Source: an uncultured bacterium
GTDB taxonomy: Bacteria; Acidobacteriota; Thermoanaerobaculia; Multivoradales; JAHZIX01
Assembly: GCA_965368975.1 (NCBI GenBank)
Contig: CBDUPA010000002.1
Span: 160,001 to 224,000, forward strand
DNA: 64,000 nt
Reading direction: 5' to 3'
The number at the start of each line of letters is the position of its first letter. Within the stretch, counting starts at the first letter, position 1. This document shows positions 8,213-40,642 of the stretch, piece by piece. The notes below the pieces were generated by a model. That model was not told the DNA's origin, made no database searches, and saw nothing but the letters and a program-made list of their open reading frames with translations. Position numbers and translations under genes: made by a program.

Positions 8213-8241
8213 AGCAGCTCTGAGGGGTACTCAGAGCTGCT
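8213..8241. terminator. Hairpin between convergent sdhB and hypothetical gene
   Basis: AGCAGCTCTGAG-GGGTA-CTCAGAGCTGCT, 12-bp perfect stem. Confidence 0.6.
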
Positions 8242-9562
8242 TGACGTCATCCAGATCAAGAGCGAAGAGCAACTGGAACGTGTCACGAATGCGCTGCTGC
8301 AGGTCCGGAGCCTGGCGCAGCGGACCTACCAGGGTGTTCGGATCCCGACTCTCACCCTCGATCCACAGGTTGGCGCACAGCACCTGGAGCGGTGGGCTGC
8401 CGGGTTCGAGGATCTGGGGATCGGTATCGTACACGCCGAGGTGTTCCAGCGTCGCGTGAGCAGCCAGGGCGCAGGCGTCGGGCAGGGCGAACAGCGACGG
8501 CTGGCGCTGCCGCAGAGCCATCGCTTGCTCTTGCCAGCGCACCAGGTTCTGCGCCGCCTGGGGATCATGCCGCGGCGCCAGCTCTCGGGCCCGGAAGGCC
8601 ATCCAGCCCGGCTTGGGCCAATTCAGACGGTCGCACACCATCTCGACCAGCTCGGTGCCGTTCGAGCCATCGGCCGAGACCATGATATCGAGTTCGTTGG
8701 CGGCTCGCACGGCTTCCAACAAGCGAGCGCCGGGCAGTAAGTCGCTCGTGCGCTGCACCACCGGTGCCGTGCAATGGTAGCGCCCTACTGGTGCCATCAG
8801 GGCCAGGTCGAGAAGATAGAGCGCGGTCCAGCGGGCCCTGCCGGGATCGTTCGGCAGCAGCGAGCGTAGCGGGTTGAGCGTGTGGCGGGCGGTTGCCGGC
8901 AGATCTCGCGACACCGGGTCTGGCAGGTCTTCGATCTGGGCCAGTTGCGCGGCTGCTTCCAGGATCATGCGCCCGCTGGCGATCACTGCCGGCGCCTGCG
9001 GTGGCGGTGTGTCCAGACGCCGCATCAGTCCTTGCCGCGGCAGACGCCAGCGCGGGCGCGGGCGGTCCTGCTGCAGGAGCAGGATCTCCTGGTACAGCCG
9101 GTTGAACTCGCCCAGGCCTTCGCTCAGGTGAGCGTCCAGGGTCAAGTGTGAGAGCCGCTGGCAGGACTCGTGGAGCTCTAGCGTCGCCTGCAGCATCTGC
9201 GCCACTACAGGATGCGTTTCTTGCTCCGCCCACGGCCTCAAGGGCCAGCCTCGACGACGGCCGTGGCGCAGACCGAAAGAGACGTTGGAGAGGATCGTCG
9301 AGGTCGCGATCTCGGAAATGTCGGTGACGAACTGGCCGAGACTGGTGCCGAGGATCTGCAGGCGGTGCTGTGCCGCGTGCGGGTGGCTCGGTGGCTGATG
9401 CAGGCGCTCCAGCAGGGCCAGCGGCTCCAGGTAGTGGCCCTGCGGGGCCACCAGGAGACAAGTGTTGGCGCGCCGTCCGTACGCTTCAGGGTTGAGGGAA
9501 GTAGCCGGCAATCGTTCGTGCCCGCAGCTCGGGATGGTTGGGCAGTTCCACCTCGACCTCAC
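8231..9562 (-). CDS. Hypothetical protein, possible degenerate zincin-like fold (start uncertain)
   Basis: Long ORF with protein-like composition filling the gap between the VWA gene and sdhB; HAAQH..Q..GT..G segment and a later HLSEG. Confidence 0.65.
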   Translation of the reverse strand: MRSRWNCPTIPSCGHERLPATSLNPEAYGRRANTCLLVAPQGHYLEPLALLERLHQPPSHPHAAQHRLQILGTSLGQFVTDISEIATSTILSNVSFGLRHGRRRGWPLRPWAEQETHPVVAQMLQATLELHESCQRLSHLTLDAHLSEGLGEFNRLYQEILLLQQDRPRPRWRLPRQGLMRRLDTPPPQAPAVIASGRMILEAAAQLAQIEDLPDPVSRDLPATARHTLNPLRSLLPNDPGRARWTALYLLDLALMAPVGRYHCTAPVVQRTSDLLPGARLLEAVRAANELDIMVSADGSNGTELVEMVCDRLNWPKPGWMAFRARELAPRHDPQAAQNLVRWQEQAMALRQRQPSLFALPDACALAAHATLEHLGVYDTDPQILEPGSPPLQVLCANLWIEGESRDPNTLVGPLRQAPDLQQRIRDTFQLLFALDLDDVKQL

Positions 9563-12500
9563 GCCAGCTGTCCTCGTCCCCGGGATCGGCCGGATAGTAC
9601 CCGAGCAGATACTGGCTACGCAGCTCGCGCTCGATCTCTTGATAGATAGCGCCTAGGTTGTTGGTGTTGGGCAGATAGTAGACTCGGCCGCCCGAGGCAT
9701 CGGTCAGGCGGTCGAGACGGCCGGTGAAGTTGCGCATACCGAGGCTCAAGTCATCGCCACGTGCAACACCGGGGTGGAGCACGATCAGGTAGATCGGCAC
9801 CCCGGCCCGCTGCGCCAGCTGGTAGCAGGTACGGAACGGCATCTCTTCTTCTTCAACGGCACCGTCCGAGAACAGCACCAGGGCCTTCTTGCCACGCACC
9901 GCCTGCAGTTCGAGCAGCGAGAACACCACCGCTTCCCACAGGTCGGAATCGCCACTGGCCTCAAGGCTGTCGATACCGGTTACCAGACGCTTGAGATCAC
10001 CGCTCAGTGCGCGCGAAAGCCGAGGGTCGGTGTCGAAGTCGACCAGGAACGCCGCGTCGCGGTCCGACAGCACGGCGCGCACGAAGTCACCGGCCGCTTG
10101 CTGCACCGCTGGCAATTTGACGAACATGCTGGCCGACGAGTCGATCGCCAGACCGAGCGTCAAGGGAAGCGAGCCGGCGTCTTCGAAGGCCTCGACGCTC
10201 TGGCGGCTGCCGTCTTCCTTGACGATGAAGTCCTCGGCCGTCAATCCCTGCACCGGCTTGCCATCAGCGTCCGTGACGACGGTGTACAGCTCGACCAGGC
10301 GAATACTCACCCGTTCGGCGAAATCGGGATCGTCCGGGATCAGCACGTCTTCGGCCATGCGACCATCGTCGAGAAAGGCCGCGGCGCGCAAGAATCCGTC
10401 GGTGCTTGGCAGCACGACGCGTTGGCGTAGCGGTGGGCCGTAGAGCGTGGCCAGCAGCTGGTCGTTCCAAGAAAGCTCGACGCGATCCAGCCGCCGGCCA
10501 ACCGGCACGTTGACGTCGACCGCCACGTCGGTGGGACCAGGCTGCAGCCGCGAGGGCTGGGTCAGGAAGACACGGAAGTTGCCGCCGGCGTCGTTGATCA
10601 GCAGAATGTCGCGTCCGACCTCCTGGCCGGCGGGGCCGTAACCCACGACCCAGAGTGTGCGCCGCTGCGGCAGGTTGCCGAGTCGGATGCGTGCCTCGTA
10701 GGGCGGTGCGTCGACTTCGGCGACCTGCTCACCATCGAGGAAGAAGACAACCCGCTGCACGATGCTGCTCTGCACGCGCGCCTCGAAGGTCACACGGCCG
10801 CGCAGCACTTCCTCGTCTGGAGCCAGCAGGCGGATCGCCCTGGGTCGCGCGAGCAGAGACTCTTCGCGGGCTGGCCGTGCCGTCGACTCGGCGGCCTGCG
10901 CCAGCGCGCTGGTCGCTCCAGCGCCAGACACGGCAGCAACGGTGCCGCCCCAGGTCGACGACTCCAGATCCTCGACCAGCACCACGACACGATCCGCCCC
11001 GGTGGGCAGCTCCAGTTCGCGCTCGACCAGCCAATCCTGCTGCTCCGCCAGGCCGCCGACGTTGCGCACCTCGTGCAGCAGCCGCAGGGTCGACCCGTCG
11101 GCCGCCGCCAACCCGTAGGTGACCCGGATGTTCGTCTGCTGGCGGGCTGGCCGGGCGGAATCGGCCGCGGCGGAGTCGGCTGTGGCGGAATCCGCCAGTG
11201 GCGTCAGGTCCGTGCGAGTCTGCAACAAGCCGCTGCGCACCTCAGGAGCATCCAGAGTGTCAGCACCCCGGTCGGACGCGTCATCGCTCGCCGGATCGAG
11301 CTGCAACGACGACAACATCTCCAGCTGACCGTCTTCGAGTTCACCACGCAGCAAGCGCCGCACCCGAGCGGCAGCAACGGTTTCCGGAGGCGTACGCGAC
11401 ACCCAGGCACGGCTGCGCAGATTCCACTCGTCACCTCGACCATCGGAGGGGCTGTCGACGCGGATCGGCAGTGCACCGTCTGCCGACCGCGGCAAGGGCA
11501 CGCGCAAGGTCCAAGCACGCGCCTGCTGTTCGACGACCGGAATCAGCTGGCGCGGGTCCGCCACTGGCGCACCGCCGGTGATCCGGGCCAAGGTGCGCAT
11601 CGCCGCCTGGGCATCCAGCAACACGGGAGTATCGCTGGCCTGCACTACTTCTTCTTCACCCTGGAGCCGCCGACGCAAGCTCTCCAGCGACACCGAAACC
11701 CAAGGCACAGCCGTGGGCGCGTCGCGCGTCGCAGCTTCGAAGTCGTCGAGGTCGTAGGCGTCCTGCGCTGGTGCCTCTTCGACCTGCAGCGGACCGAAGA
11801 CCACCGGCACTGTCGTCCAACCATAGATCGACAGCGTCCGCGCGAGGTCCAGCACGAGACCGGAAAGATCGGGCACGGCGCCGCTGCGCCGCAGCTGTTC
11901 GGCCTGGTCGACGGGCAGGACATCGAGGTAGAAACGTTCCGGTTCGAGATCGAAGCCGTCGGTGATCCAGAACAGCAGGCGCCGTTCTCCCGGCGCCGGC
12001 AAGGGACGGCGCGCTACCCAGGTCAGTAAGTGGTCGACCTGCCGGCGCAGTAAGGCCTGCTCTTCGGCCATCGCTTCACGCACACGCTCCGCGAGGCTGG
12101 ACGCCGCTGGGCTGCTCAGCACGCTATCGTCGCGCCGCAGCCTCTCGACCTGCTGCAGAAACTGACGTCGACGGGTGCGCAGCTCGTCGCTGCCGCCGTC
12201 TTGGGTGGCCTGGTTGGCCCGAATCGCCCCTTGACTCAGGGAGCTGTCGAGCAGCAGAGGATCCCGGGTCGCGGGCAGGGTAACCCGTGGATCCGGCTGC
12301 GCCCGCACCACTTCGACGGCGCCAACATCGGTGAGCTGGCGTGCCGCTTCGGTGAAGGCGAGCGCGGCGCGGCGCAGAGTGCTGTCACCGGCCAGGCTGT
12401 GGTCGAAGTAGAGCACCACGTCCCACGGCGAATCGAGTCGGCGCAAGGGGCCGGCTAGCGGGCGCTCGACGAACTCGACCGGCACCCGTTGGCCGTCGAC

Positions 12501-12863
12501 CGTCACCGTCAGATCGCCAGCATCGAGGTCGAAGACGGGTTGGTTGCCGCCGTCGAGGGCCAGGAGGCGGAGTTCGATGCTGGCTTCGCCCGCTACCGCG
12601 GCTCCAGGGATCTGGGTACCAGGAGGATTGGCCGTCCGCGTCGCGGCGAGCGGGGCCTGAGCGTGCGTCGCGGGCAACCCTGCCAGCAGCAGTACTGTGA
12701 ACAGCAGTACGGCTGGCAGCAGAGCCGGCAGCCGTGTTGCTCGTGGGTGAGCGATCGGCGCCGGGCGCCGTCGGCGCTGTGCCGTCGAAGGCGGCGCAGC
12801 GGCAAAATGGTAGAAGGAGCGGTCGATCCAGTACATGGTAGAGGCGCCCCGGTCTGCTCGCAA
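9486..12863 (-). CDS. Secreted VWA domain protein (acidobacterial VWFA type) with Ig-like domains (start uncertain)
   Basis: Signal-like hydrophobic stretch; C-terminal VTDADGKPVQGLTAEDF, MIDAS DSSASM, KKALVLFSDG, ELRSQYLLGY; N-terminal degenerate VWA copy. Confidence 0.85.
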   Translation of the reverse strand: MRADRGASTMYWIDRSFYHFAAAPPSTAQRRRRPAPIAHPRATRLPALLPAVLLFTVLLLAGLPATHAQAPLAATRTANPPGTQIPGAAVAGEASIELRLLALDGGNQPVFDLDAGDLTVTVDGQRVPVEFVERPLAGPLRRLDSPWDVVLYFDHSLAGDSTLRRAALAFTEAARQLTDVGAVEVVRAQPDPRVTLPATRDPLLLDSSLSQGAIRANQATQDGGSDELRTRRRQFLQQVERLRRDDSVLSSPAASSLAERVREAMAEEQALLRRQVDHLLTWVARRPLPAPGERRLLFWITDGFDLEPERFYLDVLPVDQAEQLRRSGAVPDLSGLVLDLARTLSIYGWTTVPVVFGPLQVEEAPAQDAYDLDDFEAATRDAPTAVPWVSVSLESLRRRLQGEEEVVQASDTPVLLDAQAAMRTLARITGGAPVADPRQLIPVVEQQARAWTLRVPLPRSADGALPIRVDSPSDGRGDEWNLRSRAWVSRTPPETVAAARVRRLLRGELEDGQLEMLSSLQLDPASDDASDRGADTLDAPEVRSGLLQTRTDLTPLADSATADSAAADSARPARQQTNIRVTYGLAAADGSTLRLLHEVRNVGGLAEQQDWLVERELELPTGADRVVVLVEDLESSTWGGTVAAVSGAGATSALAQAAESTARPAREESLLARPRAIRLLAPDEEVLRGRVTFEARVQSSIVQRVVFFLDGEQVAEVDAPPYEARIRLGNLPQRRTLWVVGYGPAGQEVGRDILLINDAGGNFRVFLTQPSRLQPGPTDVAVDVNVPVGRRLDRVELSWNDQLLATLYGPPLRQRVVLPSTDGFLRAAAFLDDGRMAEDVLIPDDPDFAERVSIRLVELYTVVTDADGKPVQGLTAEDFIVKEDGSRQSVEAFEDAGSLPLTLGLAIDSSASMFVKLPAVQQAAGDFVRAVLSDRDAAFLVDFDTDPRLSRALSGDLKRLVTGIDSLEASGDSDLWEAVVFSLLELQAVRGKKALVLFSDGAVEEEEMPFRTCYQLAQRAGVPIYLIVLHPGVARGDDLSLGMRNFTGRLDRLTDASGGRVYYLPNTNNLGAIYQEIERELRSQYLLGYYPADPGDEDSWREVEVELPNHPELRARTIAGYFPQP

Positions 12864-12918
12864 AGGTGGTGCGGCAACCGGCGACGCCCCTAGAGATTAT
12901 TGGATCGGAGAGGTTAGC

Positions 12919-13716
12919 TCAAGCCGTAGCTTCCAAAAGCATGTCTTCCAATCCCAGAAGGCGAGCCATCTGCGGATCTGGAGCACGCACTTCCAGCGGT
13001 TTCAGGTACAGCGTCGTGGCCGCATTGATCGGCTTTGCCGCCAGTTCTCGCAGTGGCCGACGCTCGATCACCGGATCGCAAACGAGGTAGTGCGCTGCCT
13101 GGTAGATGACGACTTCGTGCTCCGGCGGATAGGTCTGCAGCAGAATGTCGACCAACACCTGCAACCCCTGCTGGTTGTACTCCTGCGACTGAAAGGTCAG
13201 GTCGCCGACGCAGCCCGCCTGCCAGATCACCAGTGCGCTACCGGGATCGAAGCGGCGGTGGGTCAGCAGAAAGTCGGTGGCTTCGAAGCTCTGGCAACCG
13301 ACCGGCCCCGGGTCGATACCGAGGTCCGCGAACAGGCAGTCTTCGGCCGAGATACCGGGCAACATCTGGGCCTCGTAACCCTCCTCGCGTGCGCGCCGTA
13401 CCGCCTCGTGCGACGGATTGACGAAGACCCCGGGATGACCGTAGAAGGCGGCGCAGACGTGCAGACCTTCGCGCACCAACTCGAGCATTCGATCGACCAT
13501 CTGGCCATAGGTCTCGAAGCGCGGCTTGTCGTCGCCGTAGAAACGGAACAGCGACTCCGTGTTGGGGTTGAGCGAATCGAGCCAATCCTGGGCCAGTTGA
13601 TCCGCCATGACGTAGAGAACGCGGTCCGCCCTGCGAATGTGTGCGATCGCTTCTTGGGTGGTGTGAGCACCGACCTGGATGCCGGTGCCGACGATGGTCA
13701 AAGAGCCAGCTTTCAA
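12919..13716 (-). CDS. Borosin-type peptide alpha-N-methyltransferase (tetrapyrrole methylase fold; OphMA/SonM homolog)
   Basis: GSLTIVGTGI, Y-x3-K-x-R-x3-Y (YGDDKPRFETY), AFYGHPGVFVNPSH, PGISAEDCLFADLGIDP, GCQSFEATDFL, WQ; TTG start with AGGAGG RBS. Confidence 0.9.
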   Translation of the reverse strand: MKAGSLTIVGTGIQVGAHTTQEAIAHIRRADRVLYVMADQLAQDWLDSLNPNTESLFRFYGDDKPRFETYGQMVDRMLELVREGLHVCAAFYGHPGVFVNPSHEAVRRAREEGYEAQMLPGISAEDCLFADLGIDPGPVGCQSFEATDFLLTHRRFDPGSALVIWQAGCVGDLTFQSQEYNQQGLQVLVDILLQTYPPEHEVVIYQAAHYLVCDPVIERRPLRELAAKPINAATTLYLKPLEVRAPDPQMARLLGLEDMLLEATA

Positions 13717-13763
13717 GGGTTCGCCTCCTAAAGGCAGTCCATGAGATAGGGAAACTCAACAAA

Positions 13764-13794
13764 CCCCGGCAACCGCGTGAAGCCGTTGCCGGGG
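13764..13794 (-). terminator. Intrinsic terminator/attenuator between precursor and methyltransferase
   Basis: Minus strand CCCCGGCAAC-N11-GTTGCCGGGG followed by TTTGTT. Confidence 0.65.
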
Positions 13795-13821
13795 CGACCG
13801 TGGAGAGGTATGGGGGGAGTG

Positions 13822-14079
13822 TCAGGCCGTGGCCTGGTAGATCTCGCGCGTCTGCACGCCGAGCATGATGATCGGCGAGGGTTGAACATCAGTGGTGAGA
13901 AAGCGCATCTGACTCTCTTCGCGGCGCTGCAGGGCGTCCTGGTGATGAGTGGACAGGCCGCTGGCCTGGAGAAGATCCTGCGGGGAACGGCGGAAATCCA
14001 CCGCCTGCATCGGGTCGCTGACCAGTTGCAAGAGGAACTGCTTCAGGTTGTTCGAGTCGTTGCTGCTCTGATGGATCAT
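13822..14079 (-). CDS. Split-borosin precursor peptide (borosin-binding/LigA-like helical leader plus C-terminal core)
   Basis: LKQFLLQLVSDP...DFRRSPQDLLQASGLSTHHQDAL matches the SonA-type leader pattern; core-like tail PSPIIMLGVQTREIYQATA; RBS GGAGA; directly upstream of the methyltransferase. Confidence 0.85.
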   Translation of the reverse strand: MIHQSSNDSNNLKQFLLQLVSDPMQAVDFRRSPQDLLQASGLSTHHQDALQRREESQMRFLTTDVQPSPIIMLGVQTREIYQATA

Positions 14080-14298
14080 CTGGCAATCTCCAAGTAGATG
14101 AATTCAAGGGGGGAATTCAGGTTACGACGCTTGATGTGATGCAAGAACCTCGATGAGAGTTCGATCGAGGCCAGCTCTGCATGGGAGCTGAAGGCTCCGC
14201 GACAGACCGGCGGGCAACCGCCAGAGCGGCACCCGATCGGGCACCGCTGCCGTGCTTCATGCGTTCATGGGCTCAGACGAACGTCGGGCGAGAAACGT

Positions 14299-14317
14299 GA
14301 ATTTTCTGGAATTTTCT
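14299..14317. promoter_or_regulatory. Direct repeat GAATTTTCT x2 (10-bp period), candidate regulator site
   Basis: Exact 9-mers at 14299-14307 and 14309-14317, AT-rich within a GC-rich context, upstream of the precursor. Confidence 0.35.
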
Positions 14318-14339
14318 CTTGCCGGCGCCGATCGGGCGA

Positions 14340-17300
14340 TCAGCTGGCTTCTTGCGTGAGCTGCTGGAAGGTGGCGGCCACGGGATTGTGAACCCAGAAG
14401 CGGCGCTGTGCCGGTCCGGAAAGGTGGCCCGAGATGCGGCGCAAGAGAATGCCAGCCTTCTCCCGATGGTCGTCCCCAGCGCCGGCTTGATAGAGGACTA
14501 GGTGTAGCTCGGCCCGAAGACTCACAGGCATTCGGTCGTGTGTCTCGACAGTCTGCGGGTCTGCTTCCCCGATCAAAGCCAAGTAGGCCTGCGGCAGGAT
14601 GCCGGGAGTATCCAGGGAATACTCGACCGAGAGATCGGAGGCTTCCATGAGCAAGGGCCTTGCGGAACGGAGGTTCTCTCTCCGAATGAAGAGCCTTGCC
14701 AGCGACATGGCGATTTCCGCCTCAGCACGCTTGGCGCTAAGTTCTTGATGAAATTCGAGAGCGGAGTGATAGAGCCTCTCCGCCTGATCCAGATCGCCCC
14801 GAGCAAACGCCAGATCTCCCAGGTAGAGCGAGAAATAGCCTTCAAGATATATAGCCTCGGTCAACCTTGCTAGTTGCAACCCTTGCTGCAGTACCTCTTC
14901 GGCCTCTTCGAGCTTCCCCTCGTCCAGAGCAAGACGGCCCAGCAATCCAAGGGTCAATCCTTCTCCCTGGCGGAAACCGATCTCCTTGGACAACCGCAGG
15001 CTTTGCCCCAACTCGGAGCGGGCACGCTCGTAGTCTCCCAGATTGCGCAGTGTCAGTCCCAACATGGCACTGATACGCACTCTCAACTCGAGCGAATGCA
15101 CCTGTTCGACGTGATCCATCCCTGCATCAAACTGGCTCAAAGCCGACTCGTATCGTCCCATCCCCAGGAGAGCGCCGCCCACCGCGAGGCGACATGCTGC
15201 CTGCAGGTGAAGATCCTGAAGGTCCTGAGCCAGCTTCAGACGTCGCTCCAGCCACGTCAGCGAGTCCTCGAACTCTCCCAGTTGCAGTGACACACTGCCC
15301 ATGAGACCGAGTACTTCGGCGTGCAAGTCGTCGTCCTCGTGCCTTTCGGCATACTGGAGAGGAGGCTGCAGCGCACTACGCGCCTCCCAGTAGCGTGCTC
15401 GGTTCATCAACAGGCGAGCCTGCGCGACTTCGGCCCAGGCGACGCGTCCGGGATCCTCCGCGCTACGTGCGGCTTCCAGTGCTGCCACGGCCGTCTCGTT
15501 CTCTTCCTCGCGATAACCCATGAGGTCGAGACACTCGGTCTGCCGCAACAGAACATCACAGCGAAGGGCCGGATCAGTGACAACCCTCAGCGCGATCTGG
15601 CTCAGCTCCAACAAGGTCTCGTGCTGGTAGCGACGGGCCAGGAAGTCCAGCGCCCGCAGCAACGTTCGCCCCCCCCTCTCGATGTCGCCGCCGCGCAGGA
15701 AGTGCTCACACAGGAAGACTGCCTCGCGGCCGGAGATCTCCTCGGCCGGCAAGCTGGCCAAGCCTTCGCGCTCTTCGTAAACCTCGGCCAGGCGCCGGTG
15801 CGCCGCCCAGCGCTCGTCCGGTGACAAGCGGGCCGCCAGCATCTCCGGCAGTTGGTGCTGGTCAAATCGATAGTCGGTACCCAGAGCCCACACCACGCCG
15901 CTACGCCGCTCGATCGCCGCCAGCTGATCCAGGACCTGCAGGCGCTTGAGGCCAAGCATGTGTGCCACCAAGTCAGGGTCGAAGTTGTAGCCCTGCAGTG
16001 ACGCGGTTCCGAGCAAGTCGAGCTGTTCGTCGCTCAACGCAGCGAGGCGCGTCTCCAGCAGCTCGCGCACGGAAGCCGGAATCTCGAGCACCGCGAGCTC
16101 GTCGTGCAGGCTGTAGGCACCGCCCGCCGACGGCCGCAGGTTGCCGCGCGAAATCAAGTCGTGGACGATCTCGCTGATGAAGAAGGGATTGCCGTCGGCG
16201 CGCACCGCCAGCCGCGGACCCAACTGCTCGGCGGTGCTGGTCGATGCCAACATTTCGTCGAGCAAGCGTACGACCTGGCGCTCAGATAACCGCGACAGGT
16301 GGATCTTGCGGCAGTGGTCGAGCTGCCGCACGTCTTCGAGCTGGGGCACGCTGGTGCCCGAGCGGCAGGTGCCGATCAACAGGATCGGGTGGCCATCGAC
16401 CTCGCGTGCCAGCGCACGGAAGTAGTTCAGGGTTTCCTGCCCGGCAAACTGCAAATCTTCGACGATCCACAGCACTGGCCGCTCGCTGGCCAGTGCACAG
16501 GCGAGGTAGGACAGCACCGCCTGCAGAGCTTCCTTGGGCAGGGGTTCGACGTCGGCAGGGGGCAGCCGACCGCGCAGCAGGGCAGCGAACGCCGGCACCA
16601 GACGCGTGGTCAGAGACAGGTACCGCTGCAGCTGCGACTCGAGCTGGAACTCGCCGAGATGCTCGTGGACCGCCTGGAACAGTGGATTGACCGATGCCCG
16701 CGGCTGGGCCGCGCCGTAGAGCACGTGCAGGCCTTGGCTCGACTCGGCCAGGCGCTGTAGGAACGCATCGACCAACCGTGTCTTACCGATACCGGCTTCA
16801 CCTTCGAGCAACACGACCCTACCGCGGCCGCGGCTGGAGTCGCGCAGCAGCGCATGCAGGGTCTCCAGCTCGGTAAAGCGACCGACGAACGGCACCGCAC
16901 GCGAAACGTCCAGTCGGCGCAGCTCGTCGTAGCGGTTCTCCTGCCGCAGCTCGTGCTCACGCTGCTGCCACCAGGCCGACTCCTCGCCCTGATCGAGCAC
17001 TTCGATCAACGCCTCCGCCGAGCCGAAACGCTCGCTAGGCTCCTTGAGCATCAGACGCACCACGACTTCTTCCAGCAGCGGTGTGATGCGACTGTTGAGG
17101 TGGCCCATCTTGGGCGGTACGTGCTGCAGGTGACGCTGAATGGTGGCGCGGGTGTTGCGGCCATGGAACGGCTGCACTGTCGTCGCCGCCTCGTACAGAA
17201 TGACGCCAAGAGAATAGAGGTCCGAGGCCGGCGTCACGACCTCGCAGCGGATCTGCTCCGGTGGTGCGTACATCAGAGTGCCGACGAAGCCTCCGTCGCG

Positions 17301-17933
17301 AGTCAGCCGTTCGGTCCCCTGGTTGTCCAGCCACAGGGCTAGGCCAAGATCCATCAACTTGACGCTGTAGTCCGGCGTCATCAGGATGTTGGTCGGCTTG
17401 AGGTCGCGGTGCGTCGCACCGATCGCGTGCAGGGCGCTGAGACCGCGAGCGATCTGCAGTGCCAGTTGACGCAAGAGTGCGTCCGCCAGAGCTCCATGCT
17501 GGCGCATCAAGGCACGCAGGGTGCGCCCCTGCACGTACTCCAGCACCAGGTAGTGGATCGGCACGCCGTCGACGACGAGGTCGCCGGAGTCGTAAGTCCG
17601 GATGATCGCCGGATGATCGATCCGCTGCCCAATTTCCGCCTCGCGATAGAAGCGTTCGAGCAGCGATGGCACGTCGAGGCAGCTGGGGTGCATCACCTTG
17701 ACGGCGACCTGCGAGCCGATCGGCAGGTAGGGAGTCGAGGTGATCAGGCGAGCGCTGTAGACTGTGCTGGTCGCACCGCTGCCCAACTCGTTCTCGAGTT
17801 TGCAGGGACCCAGTCTTTGACCGACGAGGAACTTACCGGCTCGACGCGACGGCGCGATGGCGGCCTCCTCATGGACAGCGCTTCCACTACCGATAGAAGC
17901 GACCTGACGGATGTTCAACTCGCTCGAGCTCAC
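14340..17933 (-). CDS. Ser/Thr protein kinase - STAND/AAA ATPase - TPR protein
   Basis: Kinase motifs GSGATS, VAVK, HRDLKPTN, DLG, GTLMYAPPE; Walker A GEAGIGKT, Walker B WIVED, GNPFF; C-terminal TPR-like helices; no TM segment evident. Confidence 0.9.
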   Translation of the reverse strand: MSSSELNIRQVASIGSGSAVHEEAAIAPSRRAGKFLVGQRLGPCKLENELGSGATSTVYSARLITSTPYLPIGSQVAVKVMHPSCLDVPSLLERFYREAEIGQRIDHPAIIRTYDSGDLVVDGVPIHYLVLEYVQGRTLRALMRQHGALADALLRQLALQIARGLSALHAIGATHRDLKPTNILMTPDYSVKLMDLGLALWLDNQGTERLTRDGGFVGTLMYAPPEQIRCEVVTPASDLYSLGVILYEAATTVQPFHGRNTRATIQRHLQHVPPKMGHLNSRITPLLEEVVVRLMLKEPSERFGSAEALIEVLDQGEESAWWQQREHELRQENRYDELRRLDVSRAVPFVGRFTELETLHALLRDSSRGRGRVVLLEGEAGIGKTRLVDAFLQRLAESSQGLHVLYGAAQPRASVNPLFQAVHEHLGEFQLESQLQRYLSLTTRLVPAFAALLRGRLPPADVEPLPKEALQAVLSYLACALASERPVLWIVEDLQFAGQETLNYFRALAREVDGHPILLIGTCRSGTSVPQLEDVRQLDHCRKIHLSRLSERQVVRLLDEMLASTSTAEQLGPRLAVRADGNPFFISEIVHDLISRGNLRPSAGGAYSLHDELAVLEIPASVRELLETRLAALSDEQLDLLGTASLQGYNFDPDLVAHMLGLKRLQVLDQLAAIERRSGVVWALGTDYRFDQHQLPEMLAARLSPDERWAAHRRLAEVYEEREGLASLPAEEISGREAVFLCEHFLRGGDIERGGRTLLRALDFLARRYQHETLLELSQIALRVVTDPALRCDVLLRQTECLDLMGYREEENETAVAALEAARSAEDPGRVAWAEVAQARLLMNRARYWEARSALQPPLQYAERHEDDDLHAEVLGLMGSVSLQLGEFEDSLTWLERRLKLAQDLQDLHLQAACRLAVGGALLGMGRYESALSQFDAGMDHVEQVHSLELRVRISAMLGLTLRNLGDYERARSELGQSLRLSKEIGFRQGEGLTLGLLGRLALDEGKLEEAEEVLQQGLQLARLTEAIYLEGYFSLYLGDLAFARGDLDQAERLYHSALEFHQELSAKRAEAEIAMSLARLFIRRENLRSARPLLMEASDLSVEYSLDTPGILPQAYLALIGEADPQTVETHDRMPVSLRAELHLVLYQAGAGDDHREKAGILLRRISGHLSGPAQRRFWVHNPVAATFQQLTQEAS

Positions 17934-18060
17934 GGATCCCTCCCAATCTCCCCTCCCCTCGGCTCTGCAACGAGACCGGATGCTTTGACCCAGGTTCCTC
18001 GAACTGAAAGACCGTACCAGCGCTCAGCGGCACTCTAAATCATCGAACGAAAGCGTGATG

Positions 18061-18089
18061 ACGGTAAGGCAAAACGCCATTCTCGTCAA
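18061..18089 (-). promoter_or_regulatory. Putative sigma70 promoter for the kinase gene
   Basis: Minus strand TTGACG-N17-TACCGT. Confidence 0.5.
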
Positions 18090-18103
18090 GGACCTTGGCA
18101 GGG

Positions 18104-18129
18104 AAACGGGACCGCTGCCGGCCCCGTTT
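18104..18129 (-). terminator. Probable pccB terminator
   Basis: Minus strand AAACGGGGCCG-GCAG-CGGTCCCGTTT hairpin just after the pccB stop. Confidence 0.5.
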
Positions 18130-18151
18130 GTGCCCCTCCCAAGAGCGGCAT

Positions 18152-19714
18152 TCAGAGCGGAATATTGCCGTGCCGCTTGGGCGGCATGGTGGCCCGCTTG
18201 CCGTTGAGCTGACGCAGCGCGCGGATGATGCGTGGGCGCGTTTCCTTGGGCTCGATGATGGCGTCGATGTAGCCCCGCTCAGCGGCCACATATGGGTTGG
18301 AGAACTTGTCCCGGTACTCCTGCACCTTCTGTGCCCGCACCTCGGCGGCCTTGTCTCCGGCCTCCTGCAATTCACGCCGGTAGAGGATATTGACGGCCCC
18401 CTCGGGCCCCATGACGGCAATCTCTGCCGTCGGATACGCCAAGTTGACGTCGGTCCGGATGTGCTTGCTGGCCATCACGCAGTAGGCACCACCATAGGCC
18501 TTGCGCGTGATGACGGTGATCTTCGGGACCGTCGCCTCAGCGAAGGCGTAGAGCAGCTTGGCACCATGCTTGATGATGCCACCATGCTCCTGCTGCACGC
18601 CCGGCAGGAAGCCTGGAACATCCTCGAACACCACCAGCGGGATGTTGAAGGCGTCACAGAAGCGAACGAAGCGGGCACCCTTGAGCGAGGACTCGATGTC
18701 GAGCACGCCGGCCAGATAGTTTGGCTGGTTGGCCACGATGCCGACCGAGCGGTTGGCGAAGCGGGCAAAGCCGACCAGGATGTTGCGCGCGTAGTCTTTG
18801 TGCACCTCGACGAACTTGCCATCGTCGACCACCGCCTCGATCACCTTGTGCATGTCGTACGGCTTGTTGGGGTCGGCTGGGATCAGGCTGTTCAGGCTCT
18901 CTTCCTGGCGGTTGGGGTCGTCGTCGCTGTGCCCTGTCGGTGGGTCGTCCATGTTGTTGGACGGCAGGTAAGACAGCAGGTCGCGAATCGACGCCAGGCA
19001 GGCCGCGTCGTTGGCGGCCGTGAAGTGGCAGACACCGCTCTTGGCGCTGTGTGTCGAGGCACCGCCGAGCGCCTCCTTGGTCACCTCCTCGTGGGTCACC
19101 GTCTTGATCACCTCCGGGCCGGTGACGAACATGTAGCTCGTGCCCTCGACCATATAGATGAAGTCGGTGATCGCGGGCGAGTACACTGCGCCGCCGGCGC
19201 AGGGTCCGAGAATGGCGCTGATCTGCGGGATGACACCGCTGGAGAGCGTGTTGCGCAGGAAGATGTCGGCATAGCCACCCAGCGAAGCCACCCCCTCCTG
19301 GATACGCGCACCACCGGAGTCGTTGAGACCGACCAGCGGTGCACCGTTCTCCAGCGCCAAGTCCATGATCTTGCAGATTTTCTGCGCGTTGGTCTCGGAC
19401 AGCGAGCCGCCGAAGACAGTAAAGTCCTGCGCGAAGACGTACACCAGGCGACCGTCAATGGTGCCATAGCCGGTGATCACGCCATCGCCCGGAATCGTCT
19501 TGTCACCCATGCCGAAATCCTGGCAGCGGTGCATCACCAGTGCATCCAGCTCGACGAACGAACCGGTGTCCAGAAGGAGATCGACGCGCTCACGAGCGGT
19601 CAGTTTGCCCGACGCATGCTGCTTCTCGATGCGTGCGGTGCCGCCACCCTGGCGCGATGCTTCGAGCCGTTGCTGCAGATCTTCCAGACGTTCTTCCACG
19701 CTAGTGGCGCTCAT
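18152..19714 (-). CDS. pccB: Acyl-CoA (propionyl-CoA) carboxylase carboxyltransferase beta subunit
   Basis: [47 protein letters not shown]-terminal KRHGNIPL. Confidence 0.92.
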
Positions 19715-19938
19715 GGATCGTGCCTCTCCTCCAGATCGACCGAGCCGCCGGCGGTAGCCTCCCCGCGGCGGTACGGCTCTGCGTTGTCAGAATGACGTTC
19801 TCAGATGTGGTGTTCGCGGACGATACCCGACGCGTTCCGAATCCGCGCACCGAAACGCCCAGCTTGCTTATCACATCCGGCCCAGCCGCTCCAGCATCCA
19901 ACCTCGCTCGGCCCCTGCTTTGCGATGAGTGTGCCAGA

Positions 19939-21261
19939 ATGCCGGCCGTGCCGTTTTCGAGTCTCGACGCCGCCGCCTTCTCCCGTGCCCTCGCGCAAAT
20001 CGCCGAATACCCCGACGACTTGGTGGACGTGTATCTGGAACGGCGTGAAGACGTCGACCTGGCACCTGAAGACGAGGGCCCGGGCCTGCGCGTATGGCGC
20101 GAGGAAGGCCTGGCGGTACGCCTGGTGCGTGACGGCCACACCTGGCTGGCCTCACGCGACACCCTGGATGCGCGCCTGTTCAGCGACGCCCTGCGACAAG
20201 TAGCACGCGCCTTGCCATCCGCCGCCTATCCGGAACCGCGCCTGCAGGTGGCACCGTGGCAGCGCGACCCTGACACCGCCGAGGTCCAGACCTTCCCGTC
20301 GGCCGTCCAGCGCGCGCTGCGCCAGCGTCACGTCGCCTTCCCCCTGCGCCTGTCGGTCCGGCGCCACCGCCGCTGGCTGCAAGTCATCGGACCGCACCTG
20401 GTACCGGCGCAGCAGCAGGAGAGCTTCTACAGCTGCGTCTGCGAGCTACCCTGGTCGCGCTTCGGCACGCTGCTGCCCGAACTCGGTGAGGCTGGCGTCG
20501 AGACCTTCACCGCCCAGCTGCTCGGGTACTTCCGCAGCCGTCAGGCGACGCCGCCGGACACTTGCCGCGGCGTCGTCGTCCTCGATGCCAGCGCCACGGC
20601 TGTCCTGCTGCACGAGGCCGTCGCACATGCGCTGGAAGCCGACACGCTGGCGCTGGGCGGCAAACCGGACGCCGCCATCGGCCTGCGCATCGGCGCCGAG
20701 GGTCTCAACGTGCTCGACGACCCCGCCGCCGCCCCCACAGGCGTGCGCCGTGACACCGACGACGAAGGCGTCCAGGTGAGTCGACGCTGGTTGCTGCGCG
20801 ACGGCATCGTCGAGCAACCGCTGGCCGATGGCGCCTGGGCGAGTGGTTGGGACGGCTTACAGCCCGGCTGCGGCCGCCGCAGTCACCGCCACCTACCGCC
20901 GGTGCCGCGCTCCAGCTACTTGGAGCTACTGCCTGGCGACTGCGACCTCGACGACCTGCTCTACGACGCCGACGGCGGACTCTTCGTCACCGAAGCGTCG
21001 CGCGGCAGCCTCGACCCACTCACAGGTGCTTTCACCCTGCACCTGCCCTACGCTCGACGTATCCGAGGCGGCGAGATCGCCGATGCGGTCGGCCCGTGCA
21101 GCTTGCACGGCAGCGTCAGCGATTTGCTCAGCCTGGTGCGCGGCATCGGCACCGAGACGCGCCCCGCTGGCGCCGGCTGGTGCGCCAAAGGCGGCGTCAA
21201 GGTACCCGTGTGGGCACGCGCCCCCGCCATCCGGCTCGAAGGCGTCGAGGTGACGCCGTGA
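19939..21261 (+). CDS. tldD: TldD/PmbA family metalloprotease, catalytic TldD-like subunit (start 19939 or GTG 19948)
   Basis: LLHEAVAHALEAD (HExxxH), DDEG, C-terminal GWCAKGG Cys ligand. Confidence 0.8.
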   Translation: MPAVPFSSLDAAAFSRALAQIAEYPDDLVDVYLERREDVDLAPEDEGPGLRVWREEGLAVRLVRDGHTWLASRDTLDARLFSDALRQVARALPSAAYPEPRLQVAPWQRDPDTAEVQTFPSAVQRALRQRHVAFPLRLSVRRHRRWLQVIGPHLVPAQQQESFYSCVCELPWSRFGTLLPELGEAGVETFTAQLLGYFRSRQATPPDTCRGVVVLDASATAVLLHEAVAHALEADTLALGGKPDAAIGLRIGAEGLNVLDDPAAAPTGVRRDTDDEGVQVSRRWLLRDGIVEQPLADGAWASGWDGLQPGCGRRSHRHLPPVPRSSYLELLPGDCDLDDLLYDADGGLFVTEASRGSLDPLTGAFTLHLPYARRIRGGEIADAVGPCSLHGSVSDLLSLVRGIGTETRPAGAGWCAKGGVKVPVWARAPAIRLEGVEVTP

Positions 21262-22580
21262 CACGGAGCCTGCCCATCGTCACCGAGACGCTCGAAGCCG
21301 TCGGACAGTTGCAGGAAGGACGCTTCTCCGAAGTCGAGGTCTTCCACAAGCGTGGCCGCTCGCGCCGCCTGGAGCTGAGCGTTGGTGGCCGCCGCTCCCT
21401 GACCACCCACGAAACCGGTTGGGCAGTGCGGGCCGGCGACCGTCGCGGCTCTTTCTTCGCTGCCGGCACCGGCGCCCCCAAGCCTGCTGGCCCCTGGCCC
21501 GAGGCGGACGGTGCACCGATCCGCCTGCCCGAACCTACGAGTGCTCCGAACTGGAGCGCACCCCCCGACCTCGACGCCCCCCTGATCGGTGAGCGCGAAG
21601 GCCTCAATCTGCTGGACAGCATCGCCGCCGCGCTGGCCCGCGAGTTGCCCGGCGCGCGCCTGCTGCAGAGTGCCGTCGAGGACGGTTCGAGCGAAACCTG
21701 GATCGCCAGCAGTCGCGGCATCGACGCCGCCTTCCGCAGCCGCCTAGCGTCCCTCTACCTCGAAGGCGCCGGCCCCGGCCGCCTCGGCCCCACCGCCGCT
21801 TTCTACCTCGCCGAACGGGAGGCCCGGCGCTTCAACCCGCTGGCCCTGGCCCGCCGTCTCGCCGATCGTCTGCAGATGGCCCACGAAGGCGAACCGCGCC
21901 AGCGCGACCGCGGCGAGATGCTGCTCGCACCGCCCGTCATGTGTCGCATCCTCGCCGGGCTGCTGCCCCTGTGGTGCGGGCCGCAAGCCGCTGGCCGTGC
22001 CGAAGCGCTGCAAGACCGCCGCGGCCATCTAGGCAGCGAACACCTGACGCTTCTCGACAACGGCCGCCTGCCCGGCGGAGCGCTCGAGGCACCAGTCGAC
22101 GGCGAAGGTGTACCGACGCGCGAAGTCGTCCTCGTCGATCACGGCGTCTTTCGCCATCCGTTGGTCCCTTGGTGGCAATGCCCCGACGAACCCTGGGCCA
22201 CCGGCTGCAGCCGCCGCCCCGGCTGGCGAGATCTGCCGACGCCTATGCCCACACACCTCTACCTGCGCCCACGCTCGGGCGTCAGCGTCGCCACGCTCCT
22301 GCAGGACATCACCCGCGGCTATTACCTGATCGACGTCACCGCCAGCGGCCACTTCGACCTCGAAGGCGATCGCTTCTCCCTGCCCGTGTGCGGTTTCGAG
22401 ATGCGCAACGGCCGTGCTACCGCCCCCATCGCACGCACCCAGTTGTGCGGTAGTATCTCCGCCCTACTGCGCGGCGTGCAGGCCGTGGCCCGTGACCTCT
22501 CCTTCCAACCCCTACGCGGCATGATCGGCAGCCCGACCGTCCTGGTCAGCGGCCTGGAACTGCGCGGCCAGTCCTCCTGA
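21258..22580 (+). CDS. pmbA: TldD/PmbA family protein, non-catalytic PmbA/TldE-like subunit
   Basis: GTGA overlap with tldD; VDGEGVPT, GDRFSLP, GSPTVLV; lacks HExxxH. Confidence 0.75.
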   Translation: MTRSLPIVTETLEAVGQLQEGRFSEVEVFHKRGRSRRLELSVGGRRSLTTHETGWAVRAGDRRGSFFAAGTGAPKPAGPWPEADGAPIRLPEPTSAPNWSAPPDLDAPLIGEREGLNLLDSIAAALARELPGARLLQSAVEDGSSETWIASSRGIDAAFRSRLASLYLEGAGPGRLGPTAAFYLAEREARRFNPLALARRLADRLQMAHEGEPRQRDRGEMLLAPPVMCRILAGLLPLWCGPQAAGRAEALQDRRGHLGSEHLTLLDNGRLPGGALEAPVDGEGVPTREVVLVDHGVFRHPLVPWWQCPDEPWATGCSRRPGWRDLPTPMPTHLYLRPRSGVSVATLLQDITRGYYLIDVTASGHFDLEGDRFSLPVCGFEMRNGRATAPIARTQLCGSISALLRGVQAVARDLSFQPLRGMIGSPTVLVSGLELRGQSS

Positions 22581-38203: not shown

Positions 38204-40642
38204 CTACTCCCAGAGAGCCTCGCAAGACCTGGACTCAGCCCTCTGCCGCCAGTCGCTCGCCTGCGCCTGTCCTAGGCGCGCATAGACTTCCGCCACGCGC
38301 AACGCGCTCTGTTCGACCTGGAAGGTACCCTCCCCCTTTGTGCGGCAGACGGCTCGATAGCCTTGCTGGAATAGAATCGCAGCCGACACATCATCGCCCG
38401 CGGCCGCCGCGAGGTAGCCGCGCAAGGCATCCGCCTCAGTCACAACGTCGGAGGCACCTTCAGGACCGGATTGGAGCACTTCCAGCGCGTTGTTCAAGCT
38501 CTTCCTTCCTTCTAGGAGGCGTCCGCGAAGCAGTAGGAAGGCGGCGAGATCTCGCTCAGCCAGCGCAACCTTCCGGCGAATGTCGAGGTGATCCACATTC
38601 TCCGAGGAGAGCTGTCGCCGCAGTTCCAGGTTGCGTCTCAGCGTCGCCTCGGCCTCGGGACGCCCGAGGTGAGTCTGCACCCGACCCAACAGGCCAGCAA
38701 TGTTGACCCGAACTCCCGGGTCCAGATTCGCGACCTTCGCTGCGACATCCTGGGCTCTTGCGAGTTCCTGCTCGGCCTCCCGCAACTCACCACGGGTAAA
38801 GGCCACTGAGGCCAGGCTGTAGCGAATACGGACGATCTCGGTACTGCTTACCAAACTCCGCTCCTCAGCTAACTCCAGGGCTTGCCTGTAACGCGCCGAA
38901 GCTTCCTCGTAGTACCGTCCCATTCTCAAGGCTGAGCCCCAGTCGACCAGATTCGAGACTCGGTTCGGGTGATCAGGGTCCTGATGGCGCCAAATCACCT
39001 CGAGTTCTTTGAAGTACCGCGCTGCCATGTAATAGTTCCGTGCTGCATAGAAGACATCGCCAGATTCCTTGAGATACCCCATCCATTCCCGGTCAACATC
39101 ACCTTGGCGCGTGCGCTCCGTCTCGAGGACGATCTCGTACATTCCTTCAGCCAGCTTGTCAAAGCCCAGCGTCTGCAGAGACAGCCCAGCAACTCTGGCA
39201 CGTCTCGCTCTCTCCACGGGATGACGCAGGTCGGGTAGATACGCCGACAACTCGAGGAGTTCCGCCTCCGTGAGTGCGGACTCACGAGGGTACAAGAGAG
39301 CATCAGAACTCAACCAACTGAGTAGATTTTCTTCTCTCTCTGCCTGGTCACCAAGCTTGCTTGTCATCCCCAGTAGGATGAGGATACAGATGATCAAAGC
39401 CACCGCCAGCGCCGCTACGAGCTTCTGCCGGCGCACGAACTTACCCACCAGGTACACCAAGGTGCTATGACGCGCACGCACCGGCAATCCTCGCACATGG
39501 TTGCGGATGTCGTCCGCCATCAGTTCGACCGATCCATAGCGATTCCGCGGACTCTTGCGCAGCGCCTTGAGCAGGATGGCATCGAGGTCGCCAGACAGGC
39601 GACGCTGCAGGCGATGCACCGAGGTTTCCCGCAGCCGAGCGATCACCTCCGGGGTCAACGAGCTTCCCTCTTCTCCGACCGGTGCAGCCTGGGCAACGGC
39701 CCGGCTGGGCAGCGTCGGTTTGGTCTCGCAGATGACCTTCGACAGCTGGTAGAGATTCTGGCTGTCAACCTCGTAAGGCGGACGACCGCACAGCAAGTGA
39801 TAGAGCAGGACGCCGAGTGCGTAGACATCGATAGAGGTAGTGACCGGGGCTCCCGATACCTGCTCCGGACTGGCGTAGCGCGGTGTCATCGGACTCGCAC
39901 CGGCGGCGGTCAGCGTGGCTGCATCCGGTTCCAGGTGCTTGGCGATGCCGAAGTCGAGCAGCTTGGGCTCTCCGTCCGAGGTCACCAGAATGTTGCCGGG
40001 CTTCAGGTCTCGGTGCACGATCAGGCTGCGGTGTGCCGCCTCGACGGCGGAGCACACCTTGAGGAAGAGTTCGAGACGCCGACGGATACTCAGCCGGTGC
40101 GTATCGCAGTAAACGTCGATCGGGGCGCCCTCGACGTACTCCATGACGAAATACGGCGTATCGTCCTCGGCTGTGCCGCCGTCGAGCAGATGCGCGATGT
40201 AGGGATGATCCAGGTAGGCGAGCATCTGCCGCTCTAGCTCGAAGCGGGCGTGATGGTCTTCACTGGCGAAGCGGCCCACCTTCGACGGATCGACGAACTT
40301 GATCGCCACCTCCTGCTCGAAGTCCGCCTCGCGAACCGCCCGATACACCTTCCCCATACCGCCGTGCCCGACCTGCTCGAACAAGCGGTACGGGCCGACA
40401 CGCTTCGGCTGTCCGAGATCTCCCTCACTCTCGCGCTCGCGGGGCACGTGCACGGACCACAGAGGTCGTTCCAAGAAACCATCGCGTAGACGGGCTCGGG
40501 AACGCAGAAGAACTTCTGCCTGGCTCTGTAGGTTCAGGTCCCCGTGGCAGTGCCGCTCGAGAACCGTGGTCTGCTCGTCCGCGGGGACCTCCAGGGCCGC
40601 TTCGAGAATCGACTTGAGGCGCTGCCAGCTCGAACTCCTCAC
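38204..40642 (-). CDS. Ser/Thr protein kinase with TM segment and C-terminal TPR region (ECF-associated)
   Basis: GHGGMG, VAIK, HRDLKPGN, DFG, MTPRYASPE, GDLD.I..KAL, hydrophobic LVAALAVALIICILILLG, then TPR-like repeats. Confidence 0.92.
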   Translation of the reverse strand: MRSSSWQRLKSILEAALEVPADEQTTVLERHCHGDLNLQSQAEVLLRSRARLRDGFLERPLWSVHVPRERESEGDLGQPKRVGPYRLFEQVGHGGMGKVYRAVREADFEQEVAIKFVDPSKVGRFASEDHHARFELERQMLAYLDHPYIAHLLDGGTAEDDTPYFVMEYVEGAPIDVYCDTHRLSIRRRLELFLKVCSAVEAAHRSLIVHRDLKPGNILVTSDGEPKLLDFGIAKHLEPDAATLTAAGASPMTPRYASPEQVSGAPVTTSIDVYALGVLLYHLLCGRPPYEVDSQNLYQLSKVICETKPTLPSRAVAQAAPVGEEGSSLTPEVIARLRETSVHRLQRRLSGDLDAILLKALRKSPRNRYGSVELMADDIRNHVRGLPVRARHSTLVYLVGKFVRRQKLVAALAVALIICILILLGMTSKLGDQAEREENLLSWLSSDALLYPRESALTEAELLELSAYLPDLRHPVERARRARVAGLSLQTLGFDKLAEGMYEIVLETERTRQGDVDREWMGYLKESGDVFYAARNYYMAARYFKELEVIWRHQDPDHPNRVSNLVDWGSALRMGRYYEEASARYRQALELAEERSLVSSTEIVRIRYSLASVAFTRGELREAEQELARAQDVAAKVANLDPGVRVNIAGLLGRVQTHLGRPEAEATLRRNLELRRQLSSENVDHLDIRRKVALAERDLAAFLLLRGRLLEGRKSLNNALEVLQSGPEGASDVVTEADALRGYLAAAAGDDVSAAILFQQGYRAVCRTKGEGTFQVEQSALRVAEVYARLGQAQASDWRQRAESRSCEALWE

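Follow-up and report, generated by a model that had tools for sequence, protein, structure and literature searches.

The stretch of DNA analyzed here, referred to as the window, comprises 64,000 nucleotides (positions 160,001 to 224,000 of contig CBDUPA010000002.1, assembly GCA_965368975.1) from an uncultured bacterium of the order Multivoradales. It contains a run of four consecutive genes on the minus strand, in which a borosin precursor gene and a methyltransferase gene lie between the genes for a large Ser/Thr kinase and a secreted VWA protein. In the order of transcription these are P0001 (14340-17933), coding for a Ser/Thr kinase of 1197 aa with an AAA_16 STAND NTPase and tetratricopeptide repeats (TPR), with a GTG start codon and a purine-rich ribosome binding site upstream; P0002 (13822-14079), the borosin precursor (85 aa); P0003 (12919-13716), a stand-alone borosin alpha-N-methyltransferase (265 aa); and P0004 (9486-12863), the VWA protein (1125 aa), with a likely ATG start near 12836.

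Domain and homology searches agreed with a previous sequence-only reading of this DNA that the kinase-STAND-TPR gene, the precursor and the methyltransferase are on one strand. The unit, which had been drawn as a promoter followed by these three genes, was mis-bounded: the VWA gene, starting 55-82 nt after the methyltransferase gene, had been missed. The distance between the kinase and VWA genes is 1.48 kb and is filled exactly by the precursor, a hairpin and the methyltransferase. The run is flanked by a carboxyl-transferase gene (18152-19714, PF01039, E 7e-204) and by an open reading frame (ORF) at 8231-9562 for which no Pfam match was found. The absence of a transporter or dedicated protease from the unit, also noted earlier, was borne out, no such gene being found between 9486 and 19714. 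The GC content at third codon positions (GC3) of the cassette formed by precursor and methyltransferase, 0.77-0.82, is equal to that of the neighbouring genes, and the cassette therefore carries no sign of recent foreign arrival.

Gene products and expression signals

The product of P0003 has no extra domain and matched TP_methylase (PF00590, E 4e-21), dbOphM/OphMA (E 6.4e-62) and SonM (7ltc_A, E 8.8e-58, over residues 4-242 of 265). The motifs YGHP (FYGHPGVF) and DCLFAD (EDCLFADLG), which according to the available part of 10.1101/2021.12.24.474128 define borosin methyltransferases, were both present and aligned to those of dbOphM. When P0002 was searched singly against the PDB, SonA chains were the sole matches and these were weak (E 0.017-0.09); a profile of 19 such precursors from the order matched SonA with an E value of 3.5e-15 and the binding-domain region of OphMA with 6e-5. 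The precursor consists of a SonA-like borosin-binding domain (residues ~11-60) followed by a C-terminal core with the stretch PIIMLGV. The S, T and Y residues previously pointed out in the core are present in its tail.

Type IV borosins are described as having a binding domain in the precursor and a separate methyltransferase (10.1101/2024.01.09.574750, in the portion of the text available). Homology along the whole methyltransferase, both motifs and a separate, adjacent precursor with a binding domain were all found here, and the window cassette is, as judged from its sequence, a genuine type-IV-like split borosin of a known kind. It is almost certainly a working one, with predicted alpha-N-methylation of the precursor backbone.

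The nearest methyltransferases in the genomes searched were only ~54% identical to P0003. A search of metagenome contigs with P0003 identified two loci, one of which (L073, 1131 bp) encodes an 82% identical methyltransferase; the tail of its precursor matches that of P0002 in the pattern around its hydrophobic stretch, and the end of the contig aligns with the start region of P0004. The window genome itself contains a second split borosin pair (C10:83187-84431; L003 9188-10477), in which the precursor has 78 aa and the methyltransferase shares 54% identity with P0003.

The kinase P0001 contains a protein kinase domain (residues 46-309, 17007-17798, PF00069, E 6.1e-42), an AAA_16 P-loop NTPase (residues 348-520, 16374-16892, PF13191, E 9.7e-21) with the Walker A sequence GEAGIGKT, and a TPR sensor region (residues ~781-1106, 14616-15593) matched by TPR_12 and TPR_MalT (E 1e-16). 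Weak matches to the Pfam families NACHT and nSTAND5 were also obtained. In an alignment of 10 homolog rows the catalytic residues K79, E98, HRD175-177, N182 and D195 and the Walker A residues G378-K384 (GxxGxGK) were invariant and D493 was nearly so. The P-loop NTPase module is located between the effector domain and the repeat sensor, which is the arrangement of STAND proteins; P0001 is thus a putative STAND NTPase with a TPR sensor, for which ligand-triggered nucleotide exchange and oligomerization are predicted. Since no hydrophobic segment was detected at a Kyte-Doolittle value of at least 1.6, the protein is probably soluble.

Among solved sequences, those closest to the TPR region came from the TPRs of LGN/Pins (E 4e-9) and RapJ (E 1.4e-4), which bind peptides. 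A complex prediction for P0001 residues 700-1197 and the precursor gave scores of 0.01 and 0.00, compared with a mark of 0.32; it was run without controls and speaks neither for nor against the pairing.

Comparison of P0001 with models of known protein families placed it in none of three further classes. The best NCBIfam match was TIGR03903, with 243.1 bits and a cut-off of 705.75, and membership was rejected because of this score and of the missing cyclase domain (no Guanylate_cyc match). The kinase part alone matched the LanL and LanKC models, with 87.3 bits for a cut-off of 650 and 42.7 bits for a cut-off of 575, and no lyase or cyclase domain was found, so that identity with a class III/IV lanthipeptide synthetase was discarded as well. 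With PADLOC 2.0 the kinase domain (residues ~40-330) matched PD-T4-6 and mad6 (E 4e-70 to 1e-57) and no match was obtained for the NTPase-TPR part of P0001 or for P0002, P0003 and P0004; a known anti-phage system was rejected on the grounds that the matches are confined to the generic kinase domain.

A putative sigma70 promoter had been proposed upstream from the kinase gene (18061-18089, minus strand); read by eye, it is made up of TTGACG (18089-18084), a 17-nt spacer and TACCGT (18066-18061). This site proved weak: it has 5/6 and 3/6 consensus matches and falls below the scan threshold. The scan found no promoter-like site in 12500-18500, where shuffled sequences would give 0.7, and a search of the window for exact TTGACA-N16-18-TATAAT sites gave none; a terminator scan of 12500-18500 gave no sites either.

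Between the kinase stop codon and the precursor start, a 260-nt spacer (14080-14339, minus strand) contains a GC-rich hairpin without a T-run, whose fold is not significant (z -1.66). This spacer probably carries a promoter of the cassette's own. Between precursor and methyltransferase, a terminator- or attenuator-like hairpin was located (13752-13795, minus strand), with an 11-bp GC stem and then a U-rich tail UUUGUUGAGUUU. Its predicted folding energy is -31.5 kcal/mol (z -3.45), a value that none of 200 shuffled sequences reached, and both stem arms are kept in L073. The terminator scan missed this hairpin; the likely reason is an outer loop larger than the 3-8 nt that the scan allows. Attenuators between precursor and enzyme genes are common in operons for peptides that are made by ribosomes and modified after translation (RiPPs).

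Signalling proteins as neighbours of borosin genes

In a sample of the order, borosin methyltransferases were found in 21 of 61 genomes, and the 23 loci obtained besides the window were compared. The borosin genes occur recurrently in the neighbourhood of sensor-type signalling proteins, which by our own tally lie within ~3 kb at 19 of the 23 loci. Twelve loci have a Pkinase-TPR protein of 780-1140 aa without AAA_16, whose kinase domain is at most 2.4 kb from the methyltransferase, and one (G002:C8) has a STAND kinase; an adjoining Ser/Thr kinase-TPR protein is thus present at 13 loci, spread over six families. Reg_prop/Y_Y_Y histidine kinases were found within 2.5 kb at five loci, all in the window's family and including the second locus of the window genome. 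At one locus (L039) the distance to a cyclase-AAA_16-TPR protein is 2.6 kb, with LanB-type dehydratase genes alongside; another has a TPR protein cut by the contig end. None of these neighbours was found at the remaining three, two of which have Rieske oxygenases instead.

The density of Pkinase matches, determined for five genomes, is one per 67-159 kb, from which a kinase within 5 kb would be expected at ~2-4 of the 23 loci; the outer flanks of the same loci contained only one kinase. A chance origin of the borosin-kinase neighbourhood is unlikely.

Outside the order the enzyme was rarer. In a sample of the phylum, 10 of 401 genomes had a methyltransferase match, none closer than 55% identity, and six further loci from outside the order showed a kinase within 1.2 kb in two cases, at 5.6 kb in one and none in three. 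GGDEF signalling proteins are present in 56% of split borosin clusters, as stated in the available part of 10.1101/2021.12.24.474128. Protein kinases in borosin clusters go unmentioned in the portions of text available for PMC10549244, PMC8429565, 10.1101/2021.12.24.474128 and 10.1101/2024.01.09.574750, where the word kinase occurs only in T4 polynucleotide kinase; Table 1 or the supplements of the 2021 paper may list Pkinase. Literature on borosins and Acidobacteria, judged by titles and the beginnings of abstracts, contained nothing on such clusters.

A kinase tree was built with FastTree, using as background the 67 kinase domains of the window genome that passed the filters. The 14 borosin-linked kinases formed one clade (support 97) which excluded these 67 domains. 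The methyltransferases linked to those kinases also formed one clade, together with that of G002:C8 (support 93). Since both genes form clades, the module appears to have been inherited as a unit. In 12 of the 14 kinases of the clade a transmembrane (TM) segment directly follows the kinase domain, so that the TPR domain of these relatives should face outward.

One contig of the order (G059:C93; L040, 9000-27670) contains the kinase-precursor-methyltransferase module three times in tandem. The kinase domains of the copies are 91-100% identical and the last ~300 TPR residues only 20-46%, and both precursors and methyltransferases are divergent. This pattern would be expected of receptor-ligand pairs and supports a signalling role in these relatives.

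Several further features of these loci were observed. The precursor is on the strand opposite to the flanking kinase and methyltransferase, with gaps of tens of bases, in six loci (L038 3916-4128; L042 10621-10851; L044 10494-10796; L051 10656-10868; L054 9614-9826; and the three modules of L040), so that any transcript running through kinase and methyltransferase would be antisense to the mRNA of the precursor. The third precursor of L040 (16674-17273, minus strand) ends in a long polybasic tandem repeat with an AIKAKTA-like unit, as does the precursor of L049. The second borosin pair of the window genome lies directly downstream of two large Reg_prop/Y_Y_Y sensor histidine kinases, and the same arrangement was seen in L036, L041, L046 and L048, which represent the four other genomes of the family with a methyltransferase.

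In L039 (G054:C107, 5230-16710), a 461-aa borosin-type methyltransferase directly follows split LanB-type dehydratase genes (Lant_dehydr_N and Lant_dehydr_C); its neighbours also include a MacB/FtsX permease and a 1109-aa protein with double zinc ribbon, adenylate/guanylate cyclase, AAA_16 and TPR_MalT. Possibly the locus is a hybrid RiPP cluster that includes a STAND cyclase. L047 (G042:C10) and L057 (G060:C19) have two methyltransferase genes and precursors ending in PPGC and a hydrophobic tail, and no kinase. Both encode Rieske ring-hydroxylating oxygenase fusions, accompanied by a papain-like protease in L047 and by amine-oxidase/DUF7379 proteins in L057; these neighbours look more like tailoring chemistry.

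A possible peptide ligand of P0001 or a possible passenger cassette

The sequence-only reading had taken the peptide for an intracellular ligand or substrate whose methylation state controls the kinase, rather than an exported antibiotic. This interpretation found partial support, the recurrence of kinase neighbours speaking for it and the absence of the linkage from the closest relatives against it. In the form we favour, the TPR sensor would bind the peptide as its ligand, and the STAND kinase P0001 would thereby be switched; we give this reading slightly less than an even chance. P0003 would bind the helical domain of the precursor and methylate amides in the PIIMLGV stretch, and the peptide, processed or unprocessed, would serve as a self-made signal. 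Once bound to the TPR sensor of P0001, it would bring about nucleotide-dependent assembly and switch on the kinase; the VWA protein may contribute to the output. The corresponding sensor of most relatives would be a membrane kinase with an outward TPR domain. In the window it would be cytosolic, and the peptide would therefore have to act inside the cell or re-enter it. The support that the tandem modules give to signalling extends to the window only by analogy, since P0001 and P0003 lie outside the clades described above.

This last point and several others weigh against the ligand reading. P0001 groups with five STAND homologs (support 100), outside the borosin-linked kinase clade, and lacks the TM segment after the kinase domain; P0003 likewise falls outside the clade of kinase-linked methyltransferases. 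The neighbourhood counts come from related genomes and are not independent. A search of genome contigs with P0003 gave four loci (L004-L007), all in other phyla and of other borosin types, and no kinase was found within 10 kb of any of them. Judging from the 260-nt spacer and the strong hairpin, the cassette may have expression signals of its own.

The remaining points come from the six genomes of the window's family, all of which encode a P0001-type protein, at seven loci in total. Gene starts in these relatives are approximate, as they were called with a crude GC3-based ORF script. The contig with the G004 copy measures 4.5 kb and gives no information on neighbours. At four loci (G003:C2, G005:C297, G002:C27 and G001:C39; L058-L061), kinase homologs 38-44% identical to P0001 over the full length are followed on the same strand by a homolog of P0004 (43-58% identity), with gaps of 48, 59 and 423 nt by our own ORF calls. 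P0004 has an N-terminal signal-like segment, a Big_7 domain and a C-terminal TIGR03436 VWA domain (E 1e-57). Because the VWA gene directly follows the kinase gene in all four readable relatives, kinase and VWA genes are a conserved unit in the family, and the borosin pair of the window sits inside it. Neither a methyltransferase nor a precursor match was found within the 20-kb stretches of these four loci (10 kb of the kinase), and the genome with the best kinase homolog (G003, 44%) had no methyltransferase match at all; the kinase family therefore works without borosin genes. In the rooted kinase tree, (G002:C8, (window, G002:C27, (G001, (G003, G005)))), the inner group (support 84/96) places the window kinase with the copies linked to VWA only.

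These results are what would be expected if the borosin pair were a passenger, inserted into the kinase-VWA spacer by chance or for co-regulation, with a role of its peptide unrelated to the kinase. The unit lacking borosin genes in four of four readable loci, the positions of both proteins in the trees and the cassette's own spacer and attenuator hairpin all fit such an origin. In addition, P0001 is the only member of its kinase family in the window genome and presumably keeps the ancestral, VWA-linked job. We consider this explanation a serious possibility, held well below an even chance by three observations. The odds of landing beside one particular gene family are small, yet this happened twice among seven loci; 19 of the 23 other borosin loci of the order are also close to a sensor-type signalling protein; and the GC3 of the cassette resembles that of its neighbours.

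The second of the two cases is in a sister genus (G002:C8), where a second STAND-kinase paralog lies 1.5 kb from a borosin pair, in convergent orientation. The interval between kinase and borosin pair holds one gene, for a 447-aa secreted protein without Pfam match; BLASTP of this protein against the VWA partners gave nothing below E 3. The precursor of this pair is the best match to P0002 among the loci compared (E 2e-5). A borosin pair is thus present within 1.5 kb of two of six informative STAND-kinase loci, in a family whose genomes contain 0-2 borosin loci each.

Topology tests did not separate the possible histories of this association. Approximately unbiased (AU) tests rejected none of the alternatives: sister methyltransferases of the window and G002:C8 (p 0.17), sister kinases of the same two loci (p 0.20) and sister positions of the two G002 kinases (p 0.062). 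By number of events, two gains are equal to one early association of kinase and borosin genes with a later loss. The conserved linkage looked for in other genomes was thus missing from the four closest readable loci and was found with the G002:C8 paralog and, across the order, with other kinase neighbours. Some functional coupling of the cassette with P0001 appears about as probable as its absence.

A wider reading would treat split borosins as self-made peptide signals, each accompanied by its own sensor. In Shewanella this would be a GGDEF cyclase; in the order studied here it would be a STAND protein, a membrane Ser/Thr kinase whose TPR ectodomain is hypervariable, or a beta-propeller histidine kinase. 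Backbone N-methylation would enable the peptide to pass through membranes or withstand proteases, the response would involve the secreted VWA protein, and the window would contain the first case of a cytosolic, STAND-type receptor kinase that responds to a ribosomal peptide. As a whole, this generalization is rather unlikely. A recurrent, co-diversifying pairing of cassette and sensor kinase would favour signalling over antibiosis and would offer receptor-ligand pairs that can be tested. With the window, a soluble STAND kinase joins the neighbours of borosin genes. The kinase-VWA unit with the cassette, in the window genome, and without it, in four relatives, is a natural comparison set.

Known systems and other explanations

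The window pair resembles SonM/SonA, the type IV split borosin of Shewanella oneidensis MR-1, (PDB 7LTC; PMC8429565, PMC10549244) in its stand-alone methyltransferase (265 aa, compared with 263 aa for SonM) and, within the available text of these sources, in a precursor with a binding domain and a short C-terminal core, a signalling protein next door and no dedicated protease. The neighbours differ: the window has the kinase-STAND-TPR and VWA proteins, whereas the Shewanella cluster (son) combines a GGDEF gene with a cation efflux pump; its native role, like that of bacterial borosins in general, is called elusive in the part of PMC10549244 available. The window core is unrelated to that of SonA, and the gene order is precursor, hairpin and methyltransferase.

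The 12 borosin-linked membrane kinase-TPR modules of the order share with the window a Ser/Thr kinase-TPR protein beside a SonA-like precursor and a SonM-like methyltransferase. Their kinases lack AAA_16, are shorter (780-1140 aa) and mostly have one TM segment, and the precursor is often on the opposite strand (six loci); P0001, unlike them, is predicted to be soluble and of STAND type, and belongs to another clade.

Among other long kinase-headed proteins, TIGR03903, the "TOMM system kinase/cyclase fusion protein", is likewise a multidomain protein named for a RiPP neighbourhood. We take this family to be linked to thiazole/oxazole RiPP clusters, so that the RiPP class differs, as does the domain content, P0001 having no cyclase domain. 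The cyclase-AAA_16-TPR protein near the borosin genes of L039 is a related protein. No literature was found under the accession TIGR03903.

The MalT/AfsR-type STAND regulators and PknK of M. tuberculosis have the same succession of N-terminal effector, P-loop NTPase and MalT-like TPR sensor, and P0001 matched the AfsR model with an E value of 5e-12. The effector is a kinase in P0001 and a DNA-binding domain in the MalT/AfsR regulators. MalT is established to work as a switch that its ligand triggers. The RNPP receptors of Firmicutes (Rap, NprR, PlcR, PrgX) are also cytosolic TPR proteins which bind small ribosomal signalling peptides, and RapJ was among the matches of the TPR region. This similarity is one of generic TPRs, and RNPP receptors differ in having no kinase or NTPase domain and in binding unmodified peptides imported by Opp.

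The likeness of the kinase domain to those of class III/IV lanthipeptide synthetases would also allow a tailoring role, in which P0001 phosphorylates Ser, Thr or Tyr of the precursor and the TPR region acts as a leader-recognition module. Core and leader do contain S, T and Y, the set of catalytic motifs is intact and invariant, and LanL and LanKC gave weak matches (87 and 43 bits). These scores, however, are far under the cut-offs, the lyase/cyclase domain is absent, and several relatives have cores without any S, T or Y (e.g. the tails of L038 and L040a). Moreover, in the relatives the kinase domain is cytosolic and the TPR domain lies beyond the TM segment, and the kinase family occurs without borosin genes. 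Such a role is very unlikely.

A role in defence or conflict, in which kinase, VWA protein and peptide would make up a module for immunity or abortive infection, the STAND kinase sensing an invader, is more improbable still. Defence systems are known to include stand-alone kinases (PD-T4-6, mad6) as well as STAND NTPases that have TPR sensors, the kinase domain of P0001 matches the PADLOC models of these stand-alone kinases, and relatives have diversifying tandem kinase-TPR arrays. The PADLOC matches, however, reflect generic kinase similarity and do not extend to the other parts and genes, and the flanks are of housekeeping type (carboxyl transferase, TldD/PmbA, YchF), with no mobile-element genes among the flanking genes scanned.

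A stretch of another genome of the sample (G050:C2:1260986-1367655) showed ~30 Pkinase matches ~2.7 kb apart, in open frames of 860-1570 aa (mostly ~900-1000). Kinase paralogs are predicted to form a tandem array of very large size there. The contig gave no methyltransferase match, the one match of the genome being on C1.

Two adjacent genes for PmbA/TldD-family metallopeptidases are located in the window at 19720-22580 on the plus strand, ~2 kb upstream of the kinase gene and on the opposite strand to it. TldD and TldE process microcin B17 in E. coli. The pair is a candidate for peptide-maturing proteases, although such genes are also common housekeeping genes. The window genome has 90 Pkinase matches in 7.1 Mb, and a further one within the window lies at 39515-40390 (minus strand; G000:C2:199515-200390), in an open frame of 823 aa.

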